The translations under genes were made by a program, and so were the position numbers. From NCBI GenBank assembly GCA_965224085.1, contig CBDCYI010000011.1:1312001-1376000 (forward strand): 64,000 nt of DNA, written 5' to 3'. This document shows positions 1,370 through 13,501 of the stretch, in pieces. The stretch is from Candidatus Marinacidobacterales bacterium. Lineage in GTDB: Bacteria > Acidobacteriota > Vicinamibacteria > Marinacidobacterales > SMYC01. Numbering within the stretch: the stretch's first letter is position 1; every line of letters begins with the position of its first letter. The notes beneath the pieces were generated by a model that was not told the DNA's origin, did no database searches, and saw nothing but the letters and a program-made list of their open reading frames with translations.

Positions 1370-4141
1370 TTAATGGATCCCGGCTAGCGCCTCGATGTCG
1401 GCACGGGTCGAAGCACTCCAGCCGGAGAACGCGTCGATCACGCTCCCACGGGCGTCGAGTACGAGGGTGAGAGGAACCGTGAGCGACGAGCCGGCGAAGA
1501 TCTTCCCGAAATCAGACTCAGCGAGCGTGTAGTTGGGGTAGGAAATCTGCCGCGCCTCCAGGTAGCCTGGCACCGCGCCCGTATCGGTGTCGACGCTGAT
1601 ACCAACGAGCTCGACACCCGCCGCCTCGAGCTTCGGAAATAGTCTCTCGAGCTCGGGCATCTCCACGGCGCACGGCACACACCAAGTCGCCCAGAAGTTG
1701 ACGAGCATCTTTCGCCCGGAAATACCGAGAGCAGCCCTCGGGTTTGCGCCGACGGACGTGAGCGCGAGCTCTGGAAACGACTCGCCAACGCCTACCGCCA
1801 GGGTCTTGAAGAGCCTTTCCGATGGCGTTCGCGGCCGGGGCAGCTCCAGCCGGTCGAGATCGAGCTCTGAGAGGCCTTCACCCTCGACGAGACGCACGCT
1901 CTCGCCGCTGTGAACGTCGTAGCGCTCTTCGAGCCCCGACGGCCAAAGCACCGATAGCGGATAGGGTCCATCGGGTGCGTTGGGCCCGAGCCCAAAAAGA
2001 AGGCGCGCGTCGCTAAAGGAGAGAAAGCCGCTCCCACCGGATTTGATTTTCGTCTGCGTCCCGCGCGACGTTTCGAGCTTCACGACCGCGCCAAAGGCGT
2101 CGGACGCTGATCGGGTCCCGCGAAGGGTAACGCGCACGAAATCGTTGTCCTGGCCCACGTTGTTGCGATAGACGAGACGGGCGGTCTCTTGCACGGGCAC
2201 GATCACGACATCGAGATCCCCGTCATTGTCGAGATCGCCAAAGGCAAGACCGCGTCCATCGCTGATGGAATCGAGGCCGGAGACACCGGAGACGTTTATA
2301 TAGGTGCCGTCGCCTTGGGCCAGGTAGAGCGCGTCGCGCTCGAATCCGCTGAAAGACATCCCCTCCTCGAACAGCTGCGCCATGTGCTCGTTCTGATAGG
2401 TGCTGTTGCCTGCCTTCTCCTGCTCGCTCGCGGACGCCACGACGTGGCGCCAGAAGAGGCTTCACGTGTCCTTCATCGTCTTGCCCGAGACGAAGCCGTT
2501 CACCGAGAACGCGTCCTCCCAGCCGTCATTGTCGAAATCGAAAAAACCCCCGCCATAGGCCCAACCGGCGCCGAAGCCGCCCGCCGCCGAGGCGACGTTC
2601 ACGAACGTGCCATCGCCCTGGTTCTCGAAAAGCGAGTTCCCTGCGGCAAGCTTTTTCAACAGCGCGGTATCTGCAGTTGCAGTGGCATCGGGCATGAGAC
2701 GAGCGAGAATGCGATTACCCGCGGTGGAGGACATGTTCGTAACGTGGAGGTCCAGGTCGCCATCGTTGTCATAGTCGCCGAACGACACCCCCATACCGTT
2801 TCCAGGATCCACCGCACCGCGTAGGGCGGCCTCGTCTTCGAAATCGTCACCTCGATTCATGAAGAGCGCGTTTTCTCCGAAATCGTTGGCGACATAGAGA
2901 TCTTGGCGCCCATCGCCGTCGACATCGGCGAACGCTGCGGCGTAGCTCCACCGACGATCGGCCACGCGCCGCGAGCGCGCCTCTTCGCGAAACGTGCCGT
3001 CGCCCTGATTGATGAAGAGCAAGTTCGGCGTACCGTTTTCAGCCCGGCTCCACGAGTCCGGCATGATCTGCCCGTAGAGATTGTAGGAGCTCACATAGAG
3101 GTCCGTATAGCCATCTCCGTTCACATCCGCCGCGGACGTGCTGAAGCCCACCGCACGATGGTCGACACCCGCCTCCACCGAGACATCGAGAAACTCTAGC
3201 TTTCCCGAAGGCCGCAGCTGGTTTTGTAGCAGAATCTGCTCGCCAACAGCCGCCATGAAGATGTCCCGATCTCCATCGTTGTCGTAGTCGACTAGGAGCG
3301 TCCCCGTACCTCTGCGGCTGAAGAGAACGAGCGTCTCGTCGGAAACGTCGCGAAAGGTCGAGCCACTATCGAGCGTGTTCAAAAAGAGGCGGTTTCCGAG
3401 AACGCCGCTCGTGAAGAGATCGGCGCGTCCGTCGCCATCGACATCGCCAATCGCCGCGCCATGGGCCACGAAGCCATCGTTCGGCGCGACCCCGAACCGT
3501 GGGACGTTCTCCCAGAGGCCCAAAGGTTCGCTCACCTCAGAGAACAGATCTTGCCGCGAGATGAGTGAATCGAGGTTCTGGAATCGCCAATAGTCGACGA
3601 CCCACCGCTCCTCGGGACCGAGGTGCACGCGGGCTTCGATATTGCCTCGCACCCACTCGCGATGACCCGCAGGATCACGTCCGATAAGAAAGAAGAAGAC
3701 AGAGGCCTGACCGCGGACCGGCTGAGAGAGCTCGAAGTCGGCCTTTATGACTTTGAAGCGAACATCTTCGAGGTGCGTGAAATGAGCGAGAAAGCCTTCG
3801 AGGCTCGCAAGGAACACTTCGCGCCCGACGGGCCGAGCCTCGCGATCGAGCTCCCACCCATGACTCTCGATCCACTTGACGACACGGAGGCTAGGCCCGG
3901 CTTTGGAGGGAAAGAGAGTGGCTTCGAACGGTTTGCGCTCGCCGAAGCTCGCTGCGACTTGGGCGAGGTCCTGCCCGCGCAAAGACACGGAAAGCTCGAG
4001 AAGCTGATTGGCGAGCGATTCGGACAGGTCTTCCACGCGCTCCAATTGGGCGCGGTCGAGCTCGATGGGCTGCGCCGATGCCGAGAGCGCGACACCAGCA
4101 AAAAACCACGCGAGCACACACGACCCTACCCTGCGCATCAC
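1370..4141 (-). CDS. Secreted FG-GAP repeat / ASPIC-UnbV / TlpA-thioredoxin protein with in-frame UGA at codon 560 (candidate selenoprotein, ~923 aa)
   Basis: Signal peptide; repeated DxDxDGxxD motifs on both sides of TGA 2464-2462; seven in-frame codons (SLFWRHV) bridge to the ORF at 2440; ASPIC-UnbV-like region; C-terminal NFWATWCVPC. Confidence 0.75.
2433..2451 (-). promoter_or_regulatory. Putative bacterial SECIS hairpin
   Basis: mRNA UGA-AGCCUCUUCU-GGCGCCAC-GUC-GUGGCGUC: 8-bp stem, loop starting with G, 18 nt after the UGA. Confidence 0.6.
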
Positions 4142-4192: not shown

Positions 4193-5986
4193 TCAGCGTT
4201 TCGCAGGAGCCAGCTTCCGCAGCTCCTCTCCCAGAAAGGCGGAGACCTCTTTCACCGTGGCGAGACGGAGAGCTTCTTCCGCAATGGCCCGGGCTTCGCT
4301 TGCGGACAACCGCCGGATCAAGTTTTTGACGGTCGGGATCGAGACCGCGTTCATCGAGAGCTCATCGAGGCCAAAGCCGACGAGGAGTGTTATGAGGAGC
4401 GGATCCGCTGCCATCTCGCCGCACATACCGACTTTGATCCCACCTTCATGCGCGGAGTCGATGACGAAGCGGAGGGTTCGGAGAACGGCGGGATGAAGCG
4501 GCTCGTAGAGATACGACACCCGGTCGTTGCCGCGATCGACGCCAAGCAGATATTGGATCAGATCGTTGGTGCCAATGCTGAAAAACGCCGCCTCTTTCGC
4601 GAGAAGGTCCGCCGTCGCCGCCGCCGAGGGCACTTCGAGCGTCACGCCGCAGGGCAACTCGTCGCTGAAATCGAGCCCGTCGCGCCGAAGCTCGTGCTTC
4701 GCCTGTTCGACAACGCTCATCGCCTCGCGGAACTCACCGACACCACTCACCATTGGAAACATCACTTTGATGTTCCCATGGACCCTGGCGCGCCACAGTG
4801 CGCGGAGCTGTTCTTTGAACAACGTCCGATGCCTGAGCAATAATCGCACCGCTCGCAGTCCGAGCGCCGGATTGGCCTCGGAGCCAGAAACGTCGTCTCC
4901 CAGTTGCTCAGCGGAGAGATCGAAAGCACGCACGATGACGGACCACGGCTTCATCCGCTCCGCCATCTTGCGATAGACGACATATTGCTCCTCTTCGCCC
5001 GGAAACGCTCCGCGGCTTCTGGTGAGAAACCACTCCGAGCGAAAAAGACCAATGCCTTGCGCGCCGTTTTTCTCCGCCGAAGTGCACTCCTCGGGAAACT
5101 CGATATTGGCTTGAAGCACGACTTCGAAGCCGTCCGTCGTCTCCGCGGGCAAATCGCGCAAATGCTCGAGCTTCTGCCCGAGCGCTTTCTCACGGCGCCG
5201 CTTCGCACGGTATTCCCGCAGCGTCCCGCGATCGGGGTTGACCACGATGATCCCTTCGCTTCCGTCGAGGATGAGAGGCGCTCCGTGGTCGACTTTCTTC
5301 ATTAGATCCCGAACCCCGACGACACAGGGAATGCCAAGGGAACGGGCAATGATGGCGGTATGGTAGGTGCGGCTTCCGACTTCCATGCCGAGGCCCGCCG
5401 TGTGGTCCCAGTCGAGCTGCGCCGTATCGGACGGCCGCACGTTCTCGGCGAGGAGGATGTAATCCCTCTCCAGCTTTACGAGACTCCGGTTAGGCGCACC
5501 AGCGATATTGCGCACGAGCCGTCCGGCGACGTCGAAGATATCGCCGCGCCGCGCCCGGAAGTAATCGTCTTCCACACGATCGAAAACCGAGGCGAGCTCC
5601 TCGAGCGTGACCTTCACCGCCCATTCGGCGTTCACGCGCTGCTCGCGGATCACTTGCTCGACCCGCCCGATGAGAAGCGGGTCGTCCAGCATGAGGATTT
5701 GGGCATCGACGATATAACCATGATCTTCACCCAAAGCATCGACCGTGCGCGCTTTGACGGCTTCGAGCTGTTTCTTCGTGAGCTCCGTGGCGTTTTCGAG
5801 CCGCGCGACCTCAGGCTTCACCTCCTGGCGCCCTAGGGGGATGCGAAAGAACGGGACTTCTTGGTAGTCGAAAACGAGCGCGCGGGCGATGACGATTCCT
5901 GGAGCGACGCCGATGCCGTGCAGGACCAGGGGCTCTGGCCGGTCGGCACGGTCCAGAGGCGGTGACGTCGGCGCGCTCGTCGTCAT
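4193..5986 (-). CDS. ptsI: PEP-protein phosphotransferase (PTS Enzyme I)
   Basis: GSRTYHTAIIAR active His; GIGLFRSE; EANPALGLRAVR; SIGTNDLIQY; GMCGEMA. Confidence 0.95.
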   Translation of the reverse strand: MTTSAPTSPPLDRADRPEPLVLHGIGVAPGIVIARALVFDYQEVPFFRIPLGRQEVKPEVARLENATELTKKQLEAVKARTVDALGEDHGYIVDAQILMLDDPLLIGRVEQVIREQRVNAEWAVKVTLEELASVFDRVEDDYFRARRGDIFDVAGRLVRNIAGAPNRSLVKLERDYILLAENVRPSDTAQLDWDHTAGLGMEVGSRTYHTAIIARSLGIPCVVGVRDLMKKVDHGAPLILDGSEGIIVVNPDRGTLREYRAKRRREKALGQKLEHLRDLPAETTDGFEVVLQANIEFPEECTSAEKNGAQGIGLFRSEWFLTRSRGAFPGEEEQYVVYRKMAERMKPWSVIVRAFDLSAEQLGDDVSGSEANPALGLRAVRLLLRHRTLFKEQLRALWRARVHGNIKVMFPMVSGVGEFREAMSVVEQAKHELRRDGLDFSDELPCGVTLEVPSAAATADLLAKEAAFFSIGTNDLIQYLLGVDRGNDRVSYLYEPLHPAVLRTLRFVIDSAHEGGIKVGMCGEMAADPLLITLLVGFGLDELSMNAVSIPTVKNLIRRLSASEARAIAEEALRLATVKEVSAFLGEELRKLAPAKR

Positions 5987-6258
5987 CCGGTCCTCTTTTC
6001 GCCGAGCCCTTCCGAGACGAGCGTCACGAGCGCGTTCACCGCAGCTTCCTCGTCCTCGCCGGTCGCGGAAATGGTGATGACGCTGCCTACTGCCGCTACG
6101 AGAAATAGTATGCCGAGGATACTCTTGCCGTCCGTCGTTGTTCCGTCTTTCGTAATGGTGACTTTCGAGCGGAACTTCGTGGCGGTCCGCACGAACCGAG
6201 CCGCGGGCCTCGCATGAAGGCCGAGAACATTTACGATCTCGACGCGTCGTTCAACCAC
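5983..6258 (-). CDS. ptsH: Phosphocarrier protein HPr
   Basis: GLHARPAA (His15) and DGKSILGI (Ser46); GTG start 6258. Confidence 0.93.
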   Translation of the reverse strand: MVERRVEIVNVLGLHARPAARFVRTATKFRSKVTITKDGTTTDGKSILGILFLVAAVGSVITISATGEDEEAAVNALVTLVSEGLGEKRTG

Positions 6259-6691
6259 TCTCGGCGTCCTGCTCTTTCTTTTCCTTCCGCGCCAGCAGAT
6301 CGCCAGCAAGGTAGATACTGTCTTTACCTTCTCGCGCCGCTTCGGAGGCGAGCTCCAAGAGGCCGTCCCCCTCTTCCTCTTCGCGAAGGCTCGCGAGTCG
6401 TATGAGCATTGGCAGGTTCACACCCGTCACGACCTCGACCCGACTTTTCTCGAGAAAGGTCAAGCTCAAATTCGAGGGCGTGCCACCGAACATGTCGGTG
6501 AGGACGACGGTGCCTTTGCCAGAATCGGCGCGCAGGATGGCTTCCTCGATCTCTCTTTGCGCATCGTCCGGGCTCTCGTGCCAGCCGATGGAGACCGCGG
6601 TCACGTTCGGAATTTCCCCGATGATCATCTCGGCCGCCGAGACGAGTTCGCGCGCGAGCTGGCCATGGGTAACGACCACGATGCCGATCAC
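6251..6691 (-). CDS. PTS mannose/fructose-type EIIA component
   Basis: IVVVTHG; LTDMFGGTPSN; GVNLPML. Confidence 0.92.
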   Translation of the reverse strand: MIGIVVVTHGQLARELVSAAEMIIGEIPNVTAVSIGWHESPDDAQREIEEAILRADSGKGTVVLTDMFGGTPSNLSLTFLEKSRVEVVTGVNLPMLIRLASLREEEEGDGLLELASEAAREGKDSIYLAGDLLARKEKKEQDAESG

Positions 6692-7573
6692 TCAGACGGT
6701 CTCCACATCTCTATGCGAGATCCGCACACGCTGACGGGCGCTCTCGAGTCGCTTGCCGATATGGTTCGAAATCGCCACTGAACGATGTCTACCACCGGTG
6801 CACCCAATGCCAATCGTAAGATTGCTCTTGCCCTCCGCCGCGTAGTGCGGCAGCAGATAGTCGAGAAAGGACGAGAGCCGGTCGAGAAACTCCTCTGTCT
6901 GCGGTTGCGCGAAAAGAAAGGACTCCACCTCCGCGTCGCTCCCCGTCTTCTCTCGGAGATCCGTCTCGAAGTATGGATTGGGAAGAAAGCGCACGTCAAA
7001 CAAGAGGTCCGCACCCAAAGGAATGCCGTTCTTATAGCCGAAGGACAAAACGTGAATCGCCGGCCCCGCGCGCTCCGCAGTGTCGACAAAGCTCTCGAGC
7101 ACGTGTTGACGAAGCTCGTGGACCGTCAAGTTCGACGTATCCACGATCCGATCCGCGATCTTCCGAATCGGCGCGAGCTCTGCCTCTTCCCGCTGAACCG
7201 CGTCCTCCAGTGTGTCTACGTCACCATCGCCTTGAAGCGGATGCGGGCGGCGGCTCTCGCTGAAACGCCTGACAAGGACGTCGTTACGCGCCAGTAAAAA
7301 GATGACTGTCGTGGGAAAGCCGCGCTCTTTGAGCTGTTCATGCGCTTCGGGAAAATCTTCGAGAAAGCCTCGTTCCCTGATGTCAGTGACGATGGCGACG
7401 CGGTCGATCTCGCCGCCTTTCGCGGTGAGCTCGGCGAAGGGCAAGATGAGCTTCGCCGGCAGGTTGTCGACGCAGAAAAAGCCCGTATCTTCGAGCGCTT
7501 TCATCGCCAGGGTCTTCCCGGAGCCGGAAAGCCCGGTAATAAAAACGAATCGCGCTCGCGCTGGCTGCGACAT
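6692..7573 (-). CDS. rapZ: RNase adapter RapZ (YvcJ/YhbJ)
   Basis: ITGLSGSGKT P-loop; FCVDNLP; DVRFLPNPYF; GCTGGRHRSV. Confidence 0.95.
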   Translation of the reverse strand: MSQPARARFVFITGLSGSGKTLAMKALEDTGFFCVDNLPAKLILPFAELTAKGGEIDRVAIVTDIRERGFLEDFPEAHEQLKERGFPTTVIFLLARNDVLVRRFSESRRPHPLQGDGDVDTLEDAVQREEAELAPIRKIADRIVDTSNLTVHELRQHVLESFVDTAERAGPAIHVLSFGYKNGIPLGADLLFDVRFLPNPYFETDLREKTGSDAEVESFLFAQPQTEEFLDRLSSFLDYLLPHYAAEGKSNLTIGIGCTGGRHRSVAISNHIGKRLESARQRVRISHRDVETV

Positions 7574-7608
7574 TCAACCGGTCCACATGGGGCTTGTGGT
7601 CGCGCGGC

Positions 7609-8154
7609 TTACTCCGGGTCGATCAGCCCCAGATTCCCGTCGGGCCTCTGATAGAGAACGTTGGTGCGATCGTTGCTGGCATTTTTGAAGACGAGAAACT
7701 CCCCGCCACCCTCTTCGAGTGCTAACACCGCCTCTTCGACCGTCATCGGTTTGATGAGGAAGCGCCGGCTCTCGATCACATTCCGCGACTCCGGGCCCGA
7801 GCCCTCGCCGCCGGCGAGAACGTTCAACGTGCCCTGACCATCACTCTTTGGAGCGCGCCGTCGTTTCTTGTCGATGCGCTTGGCGCGGTGCTTTTTCGCT
7901 TGACCTTGAATCTTTTCGAGCGCCTTGGTTACCGAGGACTTCAAGTCATCGGTCGCTTCGGTCGCAGACATATGGACGCCCCCACGACTATGAACGTTGA
8001 GCTCGGCAATCTGGCGATACTTTTCCGTCGACAGAGTGACACGGACATCGGTGATGCCATCGATAAATTTGTCAAGCTTTTCCACGCGATTCTCGATATA
8101 GGACTTCAACTTCGGTGGCACATCCATATGCCGAGCCGTGATTTGAATCAACAT
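7609..8154 (-). CDS. hpf: Long ribosome hibernation promoting factor
   Basis: MLIQITARHMDV...KLDKF; C-terminal KPMTVEEA...NVLYQRPDGNLGLI; directly downstream of rpoN. Confidence 0.92.
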   Translation of the reverse strand: MLIQITARHMDVPPKLKSYIENRVEKLDKFIDGITDVRVTLSTEKYRQIAELNVHSRGGVHMSATEATDDLKSSVTKALEKIQGQAKKHRAKRIDKKRRRAPKSDGQGTLNVLAGGEGSGPESRNVIESRRFLIKPMTVEEAVLALEEGGGEFLVFKNASNDRTNVLYQRPDGNLGLIDPE

Positions 8155-8206
8155 GGCGCACTCCGACGACCGGAGCGAACGCGCGCGACGAGCATGGATG
8201 GTCGTG

Positions 8207-9721
8207 TCACGAAGCGAACGGGCTGCTATAGAGGTTCTTTCTTTGGTTCGAAGGTGGGATCCGCAGCTCTTCCCGATATTTGGCGATCGTACGACGCGCC
8301 AAAACGAGGCCTTCGTCCTCGAGGATCTTGACGATCTTGGAATCGGAGAGAGGTTTTTTCGGGTTCTCCTCGTCCACGATTTTCTTGATTCGCCGCTTAA
8401 TGGTGACCGACGAGACATTGTCCCCGCCTATGCTGGCGATGCCGCTATGGAAGAAATACTTCATGTCGAAGACACCCTGGGGCGTGTGGATGTATTTGTT
8501 AGCCACGACACGCGAGACGGTCGATTCGTGCATGCCGATATCGATCGCGACATCGCGTAAGACCATCGGCTTGAGGTGCTCGACACCGTTATCGAGAAAA
8601 TCCTGTTGCTGGCGCACGATGCTATTGGCGACTTTGTAGATCGTTTTCTGCCGCTGGTCCACCGACTTGATCAACCATAGAGCGCTTCGCAGCTTCTCTT
8701 TGACATATTCGCGGGTCGAGTGGTTCTCCTCGGACTTGTTCTCGAGCATGCGCCGGTAGATCGGGCTGATGCGAAGCTGCGGCAGCCGGTCTTCGTTTAA
8801 CACGATCTCGTATTTGCCGTCGACTTTGACCACATAGACGTCCGGCGTGACGTAGAAGCTTTTTTCGGTCGTGAACTTCGAGCCGGGCTGTGGGTCGAGC
8901 CGCCGGATGATTTCGCAGTGATGGATAACCTCTTCTAGCGGCAGGCGCATCGCTTTCGCAATTTCGTTAAAACGGTGGTTTTGCAAGTGGTCGAGATGCT
9001 CGTTCACCATCGTTTCCACGGGCGTGTTGCCGACCTCGAGGCGACAGAGCTGAATCAGGAGGCACTCCTTCAGATCGCGCGCGCCGACACCGACGGGGTC
9101 GAAGGCTTGCACCATCGCGAGTGCGTCCTCGACGTGCTTTTGCTCGTAAGGGCCCATCTTACATAGCTCTTCGATCGACGCTTGTAGATAACCATGCCCG
9201 TCGATGTTCCCGATAATGGCCTCGCCAATCTCGGCGATCTTCGCCTCCACCGTGACCATGCGCAATTGCCAGTCCAAATGGTCCGCGAGCGAGTTCGTCG
9301 TGGAGAGCGTGTTCTCGATGGGTGGAAGGTCCGGGACTTCGTGGCTCGTCCGCGGGCGATAGCCTTCGTCGAGATAGTCGCTGAAGAAAGACTCGTAGTC
9401 GATCTCGCTCAGCGAGTCGTCGGTCTTCGCGTCGGGCTCGGGCTCAGCATCGACCTTGGCATCGGGTGCTTGAGCTTCGGTCGTGCCTTCGCTCGCAGCG
9501 TCGCTCGTCGAGTCATTCGCGTCATTGGCGGGTTCCGTCGTCGCTTCCGTTCGCTGTTGCTCGAGCTCTTCCTCGAGAAGCGGGTTCTCCGTGATCTCTT
9601 GCTGGAGCATGTCCGCGAGCTCGAGGGTGGACATGGGAAGAAGCTTGATCGCCTGCTGCAGCGAAGGCGTCAGGATCAGCTTCTGCTGAAGTTTGACCTG
9701 AAGTGTTAGCTTTTGCTGCAC
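8207..9721 (-). CDS. rpoN: RNA polymerase sigma-54 factor
   Basis: TPSLQQAIKLL; MHESTVSR; RpoN box ARRTIAKYR. Confidence 0.97.
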   Translation of the reverse strand: MQQKLTLQVKLQQKLILTPSLQQAIKLLPMSTLELADMLQQEITENPLLEEELEQQRTEATTEPANDANDSTSDAASEGTTEAQAPDAKVDAEPEPDAKTDDSLSEIDYESFFSDYLDEGYRPRTSHEVPDLPPIENTLSTTNSLADHLDWQLRMVTVEAKIAEIGEAIIGNIDGHGYLQASIEELCKMGPYEQKHVEDALAMVQAFDPVGVGARDLKECLLIQLCRLEVGNTPVETMVNEHLDHLQNHRFNEIAKAMRLPLEEVIHHCEIIRRLDPQPGSKFTTEKSFYVTPDVYVVKVDGKYEIVLNEDRLPQLRISPIYRRMLENKSEENHSTREYVKEKLRSALWLIKSVDQRQKTIYKVANSIVRQQQDFLDNGVEHLKPMVLRDVAIDIGMHESTVSRVVANKYIHTPQGVFDMKYFFHSGIASIGGDNVSSVTIKRRIKKIVDEENPKKPLSDSKIVKILEDEGLVLARRTIAKYREELRIPPSNQRKNLYSSPFAS

Positions 9722-9773
9722 GTCGTCCTAGCTGTGGTCTACCAGTCGCCTCAGTCTCTAAGCATGTTCCGTC

Positions 9774-10499
9774 TTAATCGAGTCGAAAATCCTCACCGAA
9801 GTAAACCCGGCGAACATCTTCGTTCTCGGCTAACTCCTCGGGAGTTCCTGCACAAAGAATCTTCCCGTCATTCATTATATAGGCTCTATCGGTGATCTTC
9901 AGGGTTTCTCTGACATTGTGATCCGTCACGAGGATACCGATACCTTTCGATTTCAGATGATGGACGATTTCTTGGATGTCGCCGACCGCGATCGGGTCGA
10001 TGCCGGCGAACGGCTCGTCGAGGAGCATGAAGGAAGGAGAGGTGACCAGCGCGCGCGTGATTTCGGCGCGGCGGCGCTCGCCGCCGGAGAGCGTGTAGCC
10101 ACGGGACCGAGATTTGTCTGCAATTCCAAGCTCATCCAACACTTCCGCCAGTTTGCGCCGCCTCTCCCGAGGGGTTAGAGGCAGTGTCTCCAAGATCGCT
10201 AGAACGTTCTCTTCTACCGTCAGTTTTCGAAAAATCGACGGCTCCTGCGGCAAATAACTGATGCCACCCCGTGCCCGCAGATACATCGGCAGCGAAGTGA
10301 TGTCCTCGTCGTTCAGGAAAACCTTACCGTAATCGGGCCGCGTCAGCCCGACCACAATATGAAACGATGTCGTTTTGCCCGCACCGTTGGGCCCGAGCAA
10401 TCCGACCACCTCGCCCTCGCGCACTTCGAGGTCGACAGCGTCAACAACCTTTTTCTTACGAAAAGATTTGGCGAGCGCTTCGCCCCGCAGAACCTGCAT
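9774..10499 (-). CDS. lptB: LPS export ABC transporter ATPase
   Basis: GPNGAGKTT; [12 protein letters not shown]; LSGGERRR; [11 protein letters not shown]. Confidence 0.96.
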
Positions 10500-10505
10500 C
10501 AGAAA

Positions 10506-12536
10506 TTAAAAAGGGCGAGGTTTTGATGAGTACGTGGTCTTGGTTCGGTTCTGTTCTTGACCGTCGACCAAGATTTTATCATTCGATAAAAAGAAAGTCA
10601 ACTGCTTGCCTTCTGTGAGTTTACCGTCATTTTGGAGCCAAGCTTGCTCTCCTTCGAGGGTCATACTTTGTTCGTCCGGCAAGTATCTTGCGTGCTCGCC
10701 GGCGGCCTTTCCGTCGGCGGTAGAAATTTCCACTCCGCCCTCGGCATAGATCTCCTCGACCCCGCTTCCGCCTTTGCCGAGCCGAACCTCGACACGGTTG
10801 CCTTGAAGCGTCATCTCGGTCGAGCGCATTAGAACGCCGTCTTGATATTCCAGCACTTCGTCTGCCGCACGGTAGTGAAGGCGCGCCGCGTTCGTCACCG
10901 TAGGCTCTACCGGACTACCCGCTTCCCCGTCGCCGCTCCGGACTAGCTCCTGCAAGAGAACCGTTCGTACATCGCCTTCCGCAATAAGATCACCCACCTT
11001 CTGGAAGATCTGGATGGTATCGGCTTCGACACGGCCCCGTCCCTGGAAGCCGCGCGCGCCTCCGGTATAGACCGCGAGCTCTCGGCTCCGATCGTAGACA
11101 AGATGATCCGCGACAAAGTACACCGGTTCTTTTTCGGTGGAAGGAAACAACCCTACGCCCGGCTCGCCCGCCGACGAGGAGCCCGCTGACAAGGAGCGGA
11201 CTTCCTCGATGCCCTCGACGTTGCCGCTGTCCAGATCCACGATGATCCTTCGAGCTTCGAGGCTCGCCCGCGGGTCCCAGAGTCGAGGCGACTTTCTCAG
11301 AATGAGTCTCGAGTTGGCCGCACGGAAAATGCCTTCCTCCGCGGTCGCGCGAACATCGCCTTGCTCGAACTCCACAGCGCGCGTACACCGAGCCTCCACG
11401 AGGTCACCGGTCGCTGGGTCGAATTCGCTTTCGATCTGCCGCGACCTCACAATCTTGCGCGCGCCGTCATCGCCACTCGGCGGGATCAGAACAAGCGTCA
11501 CACCGCCGCGCCCGCGGAGTTTGGTGAGCTCGCCTTGCTCATCGAAGTCGAAGGCGAGCGTGTGGCCACTCAGCTCCTTGTGATAGCCCTCGGTCGCGTT
11601 GTCGGGGAGCCGCAACTCGAGCCGCGCGCCATTGAGAGCGCGCATCCGCTCGAGGTCTTCGCCCGAGGGGCGAAAAAGCATCTCGAGGCGCTCGGTCGAA
11701 AGGCGCTTCGTTCCGGCCTCCGCGGTCAAAGCGCCCGACATCTGGCTATCGTCCTCGCCGACTTCTTCTTCCGACACTTGCATGTTCATGACAACTTTCT
11801 CGAAGGCATGGATGCGCTCGACGCCATCGTGGTCGTCGTTCAAGAAGATCTGAAGGTCATCGCAAGTCAAGGACTTGTTTTTCTGTCGCACGTCGACGCT
11901 GTCGAAATATTGGACCCAGTGGCGGTTTCTGTGCATGAAGGCCGTCTCGCTCTTGATGTGCACGGGAGCTTCGGAGCTTGGGAGAAGGGTCATATCCACG
12001 CCGTCGCCGAGGTCGAGCTCGCCCCGCTTGATGATGTAGATCATGCTGCCGGCATCGCCGACGATGTCATCTTTGAAATAGCGCACCGGCGAACGGCTCC
12101 ATACCCGATCCGGGAACCGGCGAAACTCGAGGGACTTCGCCTCTAGGCGGAGCGAGGTGTTGTCGCGCACGACGACGTTACCCTGAAGATGGACGGAGCT
12201 GTCCCGGCGGACATTACATAGATCCGCAGTCACCACGACGGGCGTGTCGTCCGCGCCTACGTTGAAGTGGATCTCCGCGTCGCGAAACTGCTGGCCAGAC
12301 TCCGTCTGACCGACGCTCTCGGCCGCTTTCAAGGTCCAAGCCGTGTTTCCGTCCGAGTCGAGCTGCTCGAGCTCCACCTGGCGCGACGTAATGCTTTCCG
12401 GCTCGTCAGGGATGTCCAGTGTGGCTACCGTAGCCGAGCGCATCCCAGCGCGGAGGTGATGAACAACATAGCCGCCACAGACGAAAAAGAGCGCGAGGAG
12501 CATCCACTTGATGATGCGGATTTGCGTGAAGGTCAT
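10506..12536 (-). CDS. LptC/LptA (OstA-like) multi-beta-jellyroll LPS transport protein
   Basis: N-terminal TM helix followed by repeated OstA-like segments; ATG 12536 overlaps the accA stop; upstream of lptB. Confidence 0.8.
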   Translation of the reverse strand: MTFTQIRIIKWMLLALFFVCGGYVVHHLRAGMRSATVATLDIPDEPESITSRQVELEQLDSDGNTAWTLKAAESVGQTESGQQFRDAEIHFNVGADDTPVVVTADLCNVRRDSSVHLQGNVVVRDNTSLRLEAKSLEFRRFPDRVWSRSPVRYFKDDIVGDAGSMIYIIKRGELDLGDGVDMTLLPSSEAPVHIKSETAFMHRNRHWVQYFDSVDVRQKNKSLTCDDLQIFLNDDHDGVERIHAFEKVVMNMQVSEEEVGEDDSQMSGALTAEAGTKRLSTERLEMLFRPSGEDLERMRALNGARLELRLPDNATEGYHKELSGHTLAFDFDEQGELTKLRGRGGVTLVLIPPSGDDGARKIVRSRQIESEFDPATGDLVEARCTRAVEFEQGDVRATAEEGIFRAANSRLILRKSPRLWDPRASLEARRIIVDLDSGNVEGIEEVRSLSAGSSSAGEPGVGLFPSTEKEPVYFVADHLVYDRSRELAVYTGGARGFQGRGRVEADTIQIFQKVGDLIAEGDVRTVLLQELVRSGDGEAGSPVEPTVTNAARLHYRAADEVLEYQDGVLMRSTEMTLQGNRVEVRLGKGGSGVEEIYAEGGVEISTADGKAAGEHARYLPDEQSMTLEGEQAWLQNDGKLTEGKQLTFFLSNDKILVDGQEQNRTKTTYSSKPRPF

Positions 12537-13501
12537 GAACCGTCTTGGACGTCGAGCCCGACCTCCCCCATTCGCCGAAACTTCTGGTAGCGGGCTTCGA
12601 CCCGCTCTTCCGGGCTCAGCCGCTCCACCCGCTCGAGGGCTTCGACGAGATATTTGTTCAAGATCTGGGCCGTCTGGCGATGAGCCGTATGGGCCCCTCC
12701 CACCGGCTCGGGCACGATGCGATCGACGAGACCGAGCTCGAGCAGGTCCGTCGCGGTGAGCTTCAAGCCATCTGCGGCTGCTTCGGCGCGGCCGGCATCC
12801 TTCCAAAGGATCGCCGCGCATCCTTCGGGTGAGATGACCGAATAGATCGAGTGCTCCATGATCAGTATCTCGTCGCCGACCGCGACCGCGAGCGCTCCGC
12901 CGCTTCCGCCTTCTCCAGTGACAGCCACGATAATGGGAACTCGGATCCGCGCCATCTCCCGAATGTTTACAGCAATGGCTTCGGCCTGTCCTCTCTCTTC
13001 GGCGTCGATCCCCGGATAGGCGCCCGGTGTATCGACGAAACAAAAGATGGGGCGCTCAAACTTGTCCGCCATCTGCATCACACGGAGTGCTTTCCGATAG
13101 CCTTCTGGCCGCGGCATCCCGAAATTACGCCGAATCTTCTGCTTCGTGTCGCGCCCTTTCTGGTGGCCGACGACCACGACCGGCTTGTCGTGAAACCAAG
13201 CCATACCGGTGACGATGGCCGGGTCTTCTCCGAAGCGGCGGTCGCCTCGGATCTCGATGAAATCCGTGAACAAATGCTCGATGAAATCCAGCACATAGGG
13301 TCGTTGCGAATGGCGCGCGACCTGAACGGTCTGCCACGGTGTGAGCTTCGAATAGATCTCACGCCGCATCTCGTCGAGTTTCGTCGAAAGCCGGGCGATC
13401 TCACGCTCTTTGCCGGCATCAGCCGGGTATCCCGTAAGCGACTCGATTTCTTTTTGGAGCGCCGCTAGGGGCGCCTCGAAATCCGATATTTCTATACTCA
13501 C
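12533..13501 (-). CDS. accA: Acetyl-CoA carboxylase carboxyltransferase alpha subunit
   Basis: RNFGMPRPEGYRKA; DTPGAYPG; GEGGSGGALA. Confidence 0.97.
   Translation of the reverse strand: MSIEISDFEAPLAALQKEIESLTGYPADAGKEREIARLSTKLDEMRREIYSKLTPWQTVQVARHSQRPYVLDFIEHLFTDFIEIRGDRRFGEDPAIVTGMAWFHDKPVVVVGHQKGRDTKQKIRRNFGMPRPEGYRKALRVMQMADKFERPIFCFVDTPGAYPGIDAEERGQAEAIAVNIREMARIRVPIIVAVTGEGGSGGALAVAVGDEILIMEHSIYSVISPEGCAAILWKDAGRAEAAADGLKLTATDLLELGLVDRIVPEPVGGAHTAHRQTAQILNKYLVEALERVERLSPEERVEARYQKFRRMGEVGLDVQDGS

Follow-up and report, generated by a model that had tools for sequence, protein, structure and literature searches.

The two open reading frames (ORFs) at 1370-2440 and 2462-4141 of the window (the whole stretch of 64,000 nt that was analysed, positions 1,312,001 to 1,376,000 of contig CBDCYI010000011.1, from a Candidatus Marinacidobacterales bacterium) are best explained as a single gene, which in our judgement very probably encodes an exported selenoprotein of 923 residues with selenocysteine (Sec) at residue 560. 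On comparative sequence evidence, the UGA codon that divides the two ORFs is a genuine conserved recoding site with a selenocysteine insertion sequence (SECIS); the propeller that contains it is of the CRTAC1 type and is fused to a domain resembling TlpA. The insertion of Sec at residue 560 is highly probable, and the specific relay between Sec560 and the CxxC of the TlpA-like domain stands at about even chances.

A single frame with a conserved TGA codon

Both ORFs lie on the reverse strand in one frame, and their sole separator is the TGA at 2462-2464 (AAG GAC ACG TGA AGC CTC TTC TGG CGC CAC GTC GTG GCG TCC). When this TGA is read as a sense codon, the frame runs to 923 residues with no further stop, in agreement with the original prediction of one frame of about 923 aa, the lone TGA being codon 560. 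That prediction also placed FG-GAP repeats on both sides of the UGA and a thioredoxin domain with WCVPC at the C-terminus; Pfam agrees with the former (FG-GAP_3 in six stretches, and FG-GAP), and the latter corresponds to WCVPC at residues 820-824 within an AhpC-TSA/Redoxin match spanning residues 785-910. The features of the gene are as follows (pLDDT, predicted local distance difference test; HMM, hidden Markov model).

1370-4141, reverse strand: whole gene, 923 codons plus stop, one TGA read through; the first codon is GTG at 4141, with ATG next at 4138
4070-4141, reverse strand: probable signal peptide (MMRRVGSCVLAWFFAGVALSASA, followed by the cut and QP), judged from the n-region, h-region and ASA motif, residues 1-20 being modelled with low pLDDT
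3557-4054, reverse strand: N-terminal alpha+beta domain, residues about 30-195, probably NTF2/SnoaL-like (local HMM, predicted secondary structure)
2162-3469, reverse strand: FG-GAP beta-propeller with DxDxDG loops, residues about 225-660 (Pfam FG-GAP_3 1.1e-36, FG-GAP 2.6e-19)
2462-2464, reverse strand: in-frame TGA, proposed Sec560, codon 560 and first residue of helix 560-571
2433-2451, reverse strand: SECIS-like hairpin, 8 bp, GUC loop, 18 nt from UGA to loop
1922-2098, reverse strand: UnbV_ASPIC domain (Pfam residues 682-740, local HMM 660-757)
1388-1795, reverse strand: TlpA/ResA-like thioredoxin-fold domain, residues 783-918 (Pfam AhpC-TSA and Redoxin above cut-offs)
1670-1681, reverse strand: CVPC active-site motif, C821 and C824 (WCVPC, residues 820-824)

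The N-terminal domain has no Pfam match in the window protein, and a local HMM made from the family alignment recognises it in most family members. PF13577 is precomputed on this domain in two relatives, one of which carries the JGI label 'ketosteroid isomerase-like', and residues 30-195 are, rather tentatively, taken as probably an NTF2-like domain.

The AlphaFold2 model, obtained from a 42-row alignment, has a pLDDT of 92.3 and a predicted template modelling score (pTM) of 0.90. In this model a two-helix insert (residues 560-592) interrupts the propeller between blades, and residue 560 starts helix 560-571. Among solved structures, murine CRTAC1 matches best (9etn_A; Foldseek E 2.2e-28, template modelling score (TM) 0.73 normalised to the target), and it is the top PDB match by sequence too (E 2.5e-20); around residue 560 the alignment with 9etn is too weak for naming an equivalent residue. 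The C-terminal domain resembles ResA/TlpA structures with a TM of about 0.8 (Foldseek), and its PDB sequence matches include TlpA 1jfu and ResA. With FG-GAP and UnbV_ASPIC above the Pfam cut-offs and a CRTAC1-like propeller fold, the protein belongs to the CRTAC1 family; with Redoxin/AhpC-TSA above cut-off and a CxxC, its C-terminal domain belongs to the TlpA/ResA-like ones. Since the score against the TlpA equivalog NF047696 is 62.1 bits, below the curated cut-off of 230, the domain is TlpA-like and not a TlpA orthologue.

All orthologue matches covering residue 560 among 40 relatives (14/14, the window's own copy included; 62-93% identity) hold exactly one TGA, and so do the paralogues of 36-38% identity, one of which resides in the same genome. 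The TGA shares one alignment column, with KDT-TGA-SLFWRHVV in orthologues and KDL-TGA-SFFWRQVV in paralogues, and both this column and the hairpin are present in 14/14 orthologue and 6/6 paralogue loci from the relatives. The alignment of homologues at the DT-x-SLFWR column, suggested together with the original prediction, hence finds the TGA conserved in place, and the sense codons in close relatives that had been envisaged as the mark of a simple nonsense mutation are absent from all 14 orthologues. This second, longer copy in the same genome lies outside the window (G000:C5:2082025-2084142); in its frame of about 1200 codons the TGA falls in the shared column (KDL-U-SFFWRQVV), it has a hairpin of its own and a TlpA-like domain with CAPC, and the database proteins related to it carry tetratricopeptide repeats (TPR).

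Of 401 genomes sampled evenly over the phylum, 109 gave a match at E<=1e-25, and 45 of the 46 best matches hold one TGA. Eighty loci taken from this sample were joined to the 20 from the relatives, and in the resulting set of 100 loci the column holds TGA in 72, in at least nine sequence contexts, including ADG-U-RC-VWQ, PDG-U-TC-LWR and DDF-U-LPFIVSA. The remaining 28 have E, N, A, D, S, G, Q, L or Y at the column, and C in two only.

A scan for the DNA pattern TGA-Ser-x-Phe-Trp-Arg-[His/Gln]-Val-Val, one genome per species, returned at least 110 stretches in the genomes of other species. Among the matches listed, the genomes are titled Verrucomicrobiota, Planctomycetota, Acidobacteriota and Latescibacterota; the record titles of the 80 pattern loci listed include Roseibacillus, Akkermansiaceae, Verrucomicrobiales, Pirellulaceae, Planctomycetaceae, Phycisphaerae, Pyrinomonadaceae, Blastocatellia, Holophagales, Vicinamibacteria, Thermoanaerobaculia, Bryobacterales, Chloracidobacterium and Latescibacterota, as well as one Flavobacteriaceae. 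In these 80 loci the pattern is in frame in 81/81 matches, all within FG-GAP/UnbV genes of this family, and 76 of them have an UnbV profile match; four of the five without it are frames cut by the end of the locus or very short. One locus from an uncultured Planctomycetales (L147), in which the open codons beside the TGA number only 95 and 91, looks like a decayed copy of the family. The 3.6-Mb genome of one Roseibacillus (G441, locus L127) has eight separate matches with one TGA each; among the other 200 sampled genomes of the Roseibacillus phylum, four have a match at E<=1e-25, none of them with TGA.

Downstream of the TGA, the differences from four congeners fall mostly at third codon positions (22/11/46 and 29/18/91, for example) and synonymous codon changes outnumber non-synonymous ones (43/33 to 77/39), for which reason this region is regarded as still coding; the pattern upstream is alike.

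The gene is split in the databases as well. A collection of 5.8 billion proteins contains no full-length close relative, and by hand count 53 of the best 120 database clusters are proteins of 540-603 aa covering the part before the TGA only. The seven such truncated proteins inspected all end at ...[KE]DT, and their source names are hypothetical, FG-GAP-like or VCBS repeat.

The SECIS-like hairpin and the selenocysteine machinery

The hairpin GGCGCCAC-GUC-GUGGCGUC spans positions 14-32, numbered from the first base of the UGA, and its G-initial GUC loop starts 18 nt past the UGA, as had been read from the sequence beforehand. Its minimum free energy (MFE) is -12.8 kcal/mol against a shuffle mean of -7.5, with 5 of 200 shuffles folding as well. 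According to PMC13188914, the bacterial SECIS (bSECIS) model calls for a loop of 3-9 nt with G in its first two positions, a stem of 4-16 bp, a distance of 16-37 nt between UGA and loop and an MFE <= -7.5 kcal/mol; the window hairpin falls within the constraints given there, having a 3-nt loop (GUC), 8 bp, a spacing of 18 nt and -12.8 kcal/mol.

Since the stem coincides with the W-R-[HQ]-V-V-[ASTP] codons, the peptide itself accounts for part of it. The control for this peptide effect consists of non-TGA homologues encoding the identical WRQVV peptide. Among distinct sequences encoding WRQVV, six or more contiguous pairs are formed in 18 of the 20 TGA forms, whereas even four or more are formed in only 3 of the 14 non-TGA forms; the pair 18-28 divides the two groups in the same proportions (18/20 versus 3/14). 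Over 123 distinct TGA sequences, 87.7% of cells pair, compared with 80.1% in shuffles (reached in 0 of 500, a count that is not a probability because the sequences are related). The pair 18-28 is CG in 44 of these sequences, GU in 32, AU in 17, UA in 17, GC in 9 and another combination in 4, with a covariation score of 0.231 as opposed to 0.083 when shuffled (0/500 reach it) and 0.016-0.077 with slid partners. Only one pair covaries, since the others are fixed by the peptide. The downstream hairpin, the conservation of which had been proposed as a check, is accordingly retained in homologues and covaries.

The first base of codon 568 is hairpin column 28, and residue 568 (A, S, T or P) tracks the silent third base of the Arg565 codon (window 2437-2449), because both bases pair in the SECIS stem. 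The hairpin would thus represent an RNA structure that dictates a protein residue. The overall folding energy of the downstream region does not separate TGA from non-TGA forms (-13.2 versus -12.5 kcal/mol); position-specific pairing alone does. Rfam gave no relevant match to the hairpin.

All four genes of the Sec machinery, the presence of which was to be verified, were found in the genome: selA (profile E 7.9e-137), a SelB wing domain in a 649-codon frame, tRNA-Sec (selC; 74 bits, called SeC with anticodon UCA by ARAGORN) and selD (279.6 bits, above cut-off). The selD match (G000:C5:1545162-1546073) is located in an open frame of 774 codons, and since this is far longer than plain SelD, the gene may encode a fusion protein.

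Among the matches listed from the 401-genome sample, 61 genomes carry a TGA form and 56 of them have selA (both hand counts, including the unpublished genome G089). Of the five carriers without a full selA, one shows a partial copy of it at the end of a contig, and the other four combine tRNA-Sec (68-76 bits) with selB above cut-off; as the tRNA-Sec model also responds in control genomes believed to be Sec-less, more weight is given to the score level and to selB. Among five carriers from other phyla, selA is present in four. The co-occurrence with selA is weak evidence, because selA is common in both the phylum (297/401 genomes, E<=1e-60) and the order (40/41).

Proposed coupling of Sec560 to the CxxC motif and alternative readings

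Local profiles over the 100 loci revealed a CxxC at the active-site position in every TGA form that has a TlpA-like domain (64/64), whereas the non-TGA forms with this domain keep it in 3 of 15 cases and have lost it in 12, usually by loss of the first Cys. Eight TGA forms lack the TlpA-like domain; six of these have U-x-C (U-R-C or U-T-C) and two have neither. The U-x-C proteins (L090-L092, L121, L122 and L094, from genomes G425, G433 and G133) are about 830-910 aa long, three copies being found in G433 and two in G425, and their hairpin begins nearer to the UGA. A scan of the whole protein identified eight columns with a conservation of 85% or more among TGA forms that no more than 35% of non-TGA forms share: the Sec column, N815, A818, C821 and E827 of the TlpA motif, and F533, N538 and S598. 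In the frames listed from other phyla, a TlpA-like match is present in 63/81, with a CxxC downstream in 60 of the 63, and 15 of the 18 frames without a match run off the locus.

The residue that takes the place of Sec is seldom Cys. Full-length database homologues have S (13), R (6), D (5) or C (4) at the column, and the non-TGA paralogues read D-L-[N/D/E/S/A/G/Q]-S-F-F-W-R. The motif D-L-[S/C]-S-F-F-W-R, tentatively given in the original prediction, was right as to the D-L-x-S-F-F-W-R frame and the occurrence of S; Cys proved rare, and other residues are common. The Cys forms in the database are P0007, P0009, P0015 and P0026, of which P0007 and P0026 retain the CxxC; as U and C are printed alike, a 'C' in a source record might be U. 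Given the rarity of Cys homologues, this is not a classic Sec/Cys family.

A quick maximum-likelihood tree was built from 100 rows and 544 columns, with the Sec column masked, to follow the history of the TGA. Six changes of state are needed, at least four of them forced by well-supported branches. Several losses of Sec seem the simplest reading, because TGA forms occupy most deep clades; the tree being unrooted, it does not distinguish gains from losses. The replacement of Sec by residues that are almost never Cys, along with the usual decay of the CxxC, suggests that upon loss of Sec the redox function was dropped instead of being passed to Cys. The retention of the CxxC in TGA forms and the U-x-C of most domain-less ones lend comparative support to a Sec/CxxC redox relay. 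Of the recycling of Sec by the CxxC, as originally proposed, the comparative side is thereby strengthened, and the recycling as such still has the status of a proposal.

In the proposed mechanism, SelB and tRNA-Sec would decode UGA560 as Sec under the direction of the stem-loop in the W-R-H-V-V-A codons. Sec560, capping the helix of the propeller, may act as the redox nucleophile, a role which we consider about evenly poised. It would react with an oxidised substrate of the peroxide, sulfoxide or disulfide type and then be linked to C821, in the tethered TlpA domain, by a selenenylsulfide bond that C824 would resolve. The resulting disulfide would be re-reduced from the membrane, from which periplasmic TlpA/ResA proteins receive electrons. 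In the U-x-C forms, the vicinal Cys may regenerate Sec instead.

Several observations weigh against a Sec560 selenoprotein of this kind. Part of the hairpin is dictated by the R-[HQ]-V-V codons. Cys occurs at the column in 2 of the 28 non-TGA loci (L116, L117), and known selenoprotein families mostly have Cys counterparts. Three loci (L111 with E, L112 with A, L114 with Y) and three database proteins (P0003 with V, P0004 with S, P0005 with L) keep the CxxC with neither Sec nor Cys. The tree gives four independent pairs, in one to three of which the CxxC moved with the TGA, never in the opposite direction, and this is not significant. A 1.7-Mb metagenome-assembled genome (MAG) titled Flavobacteriaceae carries a TGA form, with both selA and selB undetected; either this genome is incomplete or one of its contigs was binned wrongly. 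The gene neighbourhood is not conserved beyond close relatives, the neighbours elsewhere being unrelated and giving no hint of function.

Some of these points could be accommodated by a real selenoprotein in which Sec560 serves as a soft-metal ligand or has a structural or regulatory role, with the TlpA domain acting on another target. The replacement of Sec by residues of the D/N/E/S/H type instead of Cys, the possible ligand positions beside the DxDxDG loops, and the six homologues with CxxC in the absence of Sec and Cys speak in favour of such a role, as does the fact that TlpA proper serves copper-site maturation. However, the column also accommodates R, V, L, A and G, which amounts to no consistent ligand chemistry; the linkage of CxxC to Sec (64/64 versus 3/15), the U-x-C in six of the eight domain-less TGA forms and the finding that the columns most linked to Sec are active-site residues of TlpA are likewise at odds with it, and we regard a ligand or structural role as unlikely.

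A good deal less likely still is that no Sec is inserted and the UGA is a programmed stop or a site of leaky read-through, the hairpin boosting near-cognate decoding, or a 559-aa and a full-length product being made. The gene callers indeed give products of 540-603 aa ending at ...KDT (7/7 checked), and the replacements by residues other than Cys suggest that it may be of little consequence which residue stands there. Nevertheless, the stop-bearing loci have TGA at the column in 72/72 cases, never TAA or TAG; the hairpin suits the SelB-type SECIS model with respect to spacing and the GU loop; a marker of the Sec machinery is present in 61/61 carrier genomes among the matches listed from the phylum sample; and a stop would interrupt the propeller and deprive the protein of its UnbV and TlpA domains, which are kept under purifying selection.

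Hardly credible, and rejected, are the readings as a pseudogene, nonsense mutation or sequencing error and as a pair of genes, one of 559 aa and the other a 356-aa ORF from the GTG at 2440: translation table 11 does split the frame and a GTG lies seven codons past the TGA, but the same TGA recurs in one column in more than 150 loci from many genomes of several phyla, the codons between TGA and GTG (S-L-F-W-R-H-V) are conserved as protein in TGA and non-TGA homologues, and the downstream substitutions look coding.

Genomic context, significance and comparison with known systems

Upstream of the gene, on the same strand (window 4193-13043, reverse strand), lies an rpoN-type cluster coding for LptD_N/LptC-like protein, ABC ATPase, sigma-54, ribosome hibernation factor, RapZ, phosphotransferase system (PTS) EIIA-Man and enzyme I (ptsI). 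The ptsI gene ends 51 nt before the selenoprotein gene and is found upstream in the close relatives L173 and L175 too, not in other lineages. At two Pyrinomonadaceae loci (L148:4040-5581 and L156:2708-4273), the adjoining gene encodes a vanadium haloperoxidase-like protein with DUF6851 and the VCPO second helical-bundle domain; this neighbour, seen in two related loci only, could hint at peroxide chemistry.

The original prediction held that this is not an established selenoprotein family, and it is indeed absent from the selenoprotein resources consulted. The selenoprotein models of NCBIfam release 20 gave no match above threshold, the sub-threshold ones being of the TlpA/ResA type only, and the table of 119 prokaryotic selenoprotein families and subfamilies in a 2026 review has no propeller, FG-GAP, VCBS or CRTAC1 entry. 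The terms FG-GAP, ASPIC, CRTAC1, VCBS, propeller and Acidobacteri do not occur in that review or in the BSepDB paper. Full-text literature searches found nothing relevant linking selenoproteins to the family, an earlier mention in supplements or subscription papers being possible. This is very probably a selenoprotein family and, as far as the search reached, one that has not been described.

A wider claim, to which we give slightly less than an even chance, is that the family is a large unrecognised group of exported beta-propeller selenoenzymes, spread over at least four phyla with up to eight paralogues per genome, in which Sec is essentially not replaceable by Cys. If so, it would constitute a major part of the selenoproteome in Acidobacteriota, Planctomycetota and marine Verrucomicrobiota, and one reason why these largely aerobic lineages retain the Sec machinery. 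It would be the first beta-propeller selenoprotein, within the reach of the literature search, and would carry out an extracytoplasmic redox reaction new among selenoproteins, its CxxC domain tending to decay upon loss of Sec. Families with many more Sec forms than Cys forms are rare, and this one, which would be among them, may therefore bear on what Sec does that Cys cannot. The fused TlpA domain and the U-x-C variants suggest a definite mechanism that is open to experiment. Genes of soil and marine bacteria would then be misannotated as 540-600-aa 'FG-GAP/VCBS repeat' fragments accompanied by orphan downstream ORFs, and the selenoproteome counts for Acidobacteriota, Planctomycetota and Verrucomicrobiota would be too low.

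With the CRTAC1/ASPIC-UnbV family, the window protein shares an FG-GAP propeller with DxDxDG loops followed by the UnbV_ASPIC domain, and its non-TGA relatives carry the NCBI name 'CRTAC1 family protein'. It differs from CRTAC1 in the additional NTF2-like N-terminal domain, the Sec-headed two-helix insert and the C-terminal TlpA-like CxxC domain. To our knowledge, CRTAC1 is known neither as a selenoprotein nor as a redox enzyme.

An extracytoplasmic TlpA-like domain of thioredoxin fold also occurs in a known selenoprotein family, NF041054, listed in the 2026 catalogue. In that family, however, Sec is part of the thioredoxin motif itself (UGC), whereas the window protein has an all-Cys WCVPC, with Sec about 260 residues upstream in another domain, and it scores 34.6 bits against the NF041054 cut-off of 300. 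The proposed regeneration of a lone Sec at the start of a helix by a thioredoxin-fold dithiol is reminiscent of GPX-like and Prx selenoproteins; in contrast to these, the window protein has the unrelated beta-propeller fold, is exported, and would have its reductant fused in cis.

The hairpin, in turn, resembles the SECIS of the Escherichia coli fdhF type, being a stem-loop immediately 3' of the UGA within the coding sequence, whose small apical loop contains G-U and whose spacing falls in the range of 16-37 nt. The paralogue hairpins have a GGUCG loop, which we take to be similar to the GGUC loop of fdhF. Otherwise, the sequences of the fdhF SECIS and the window hairpin are unrelated.

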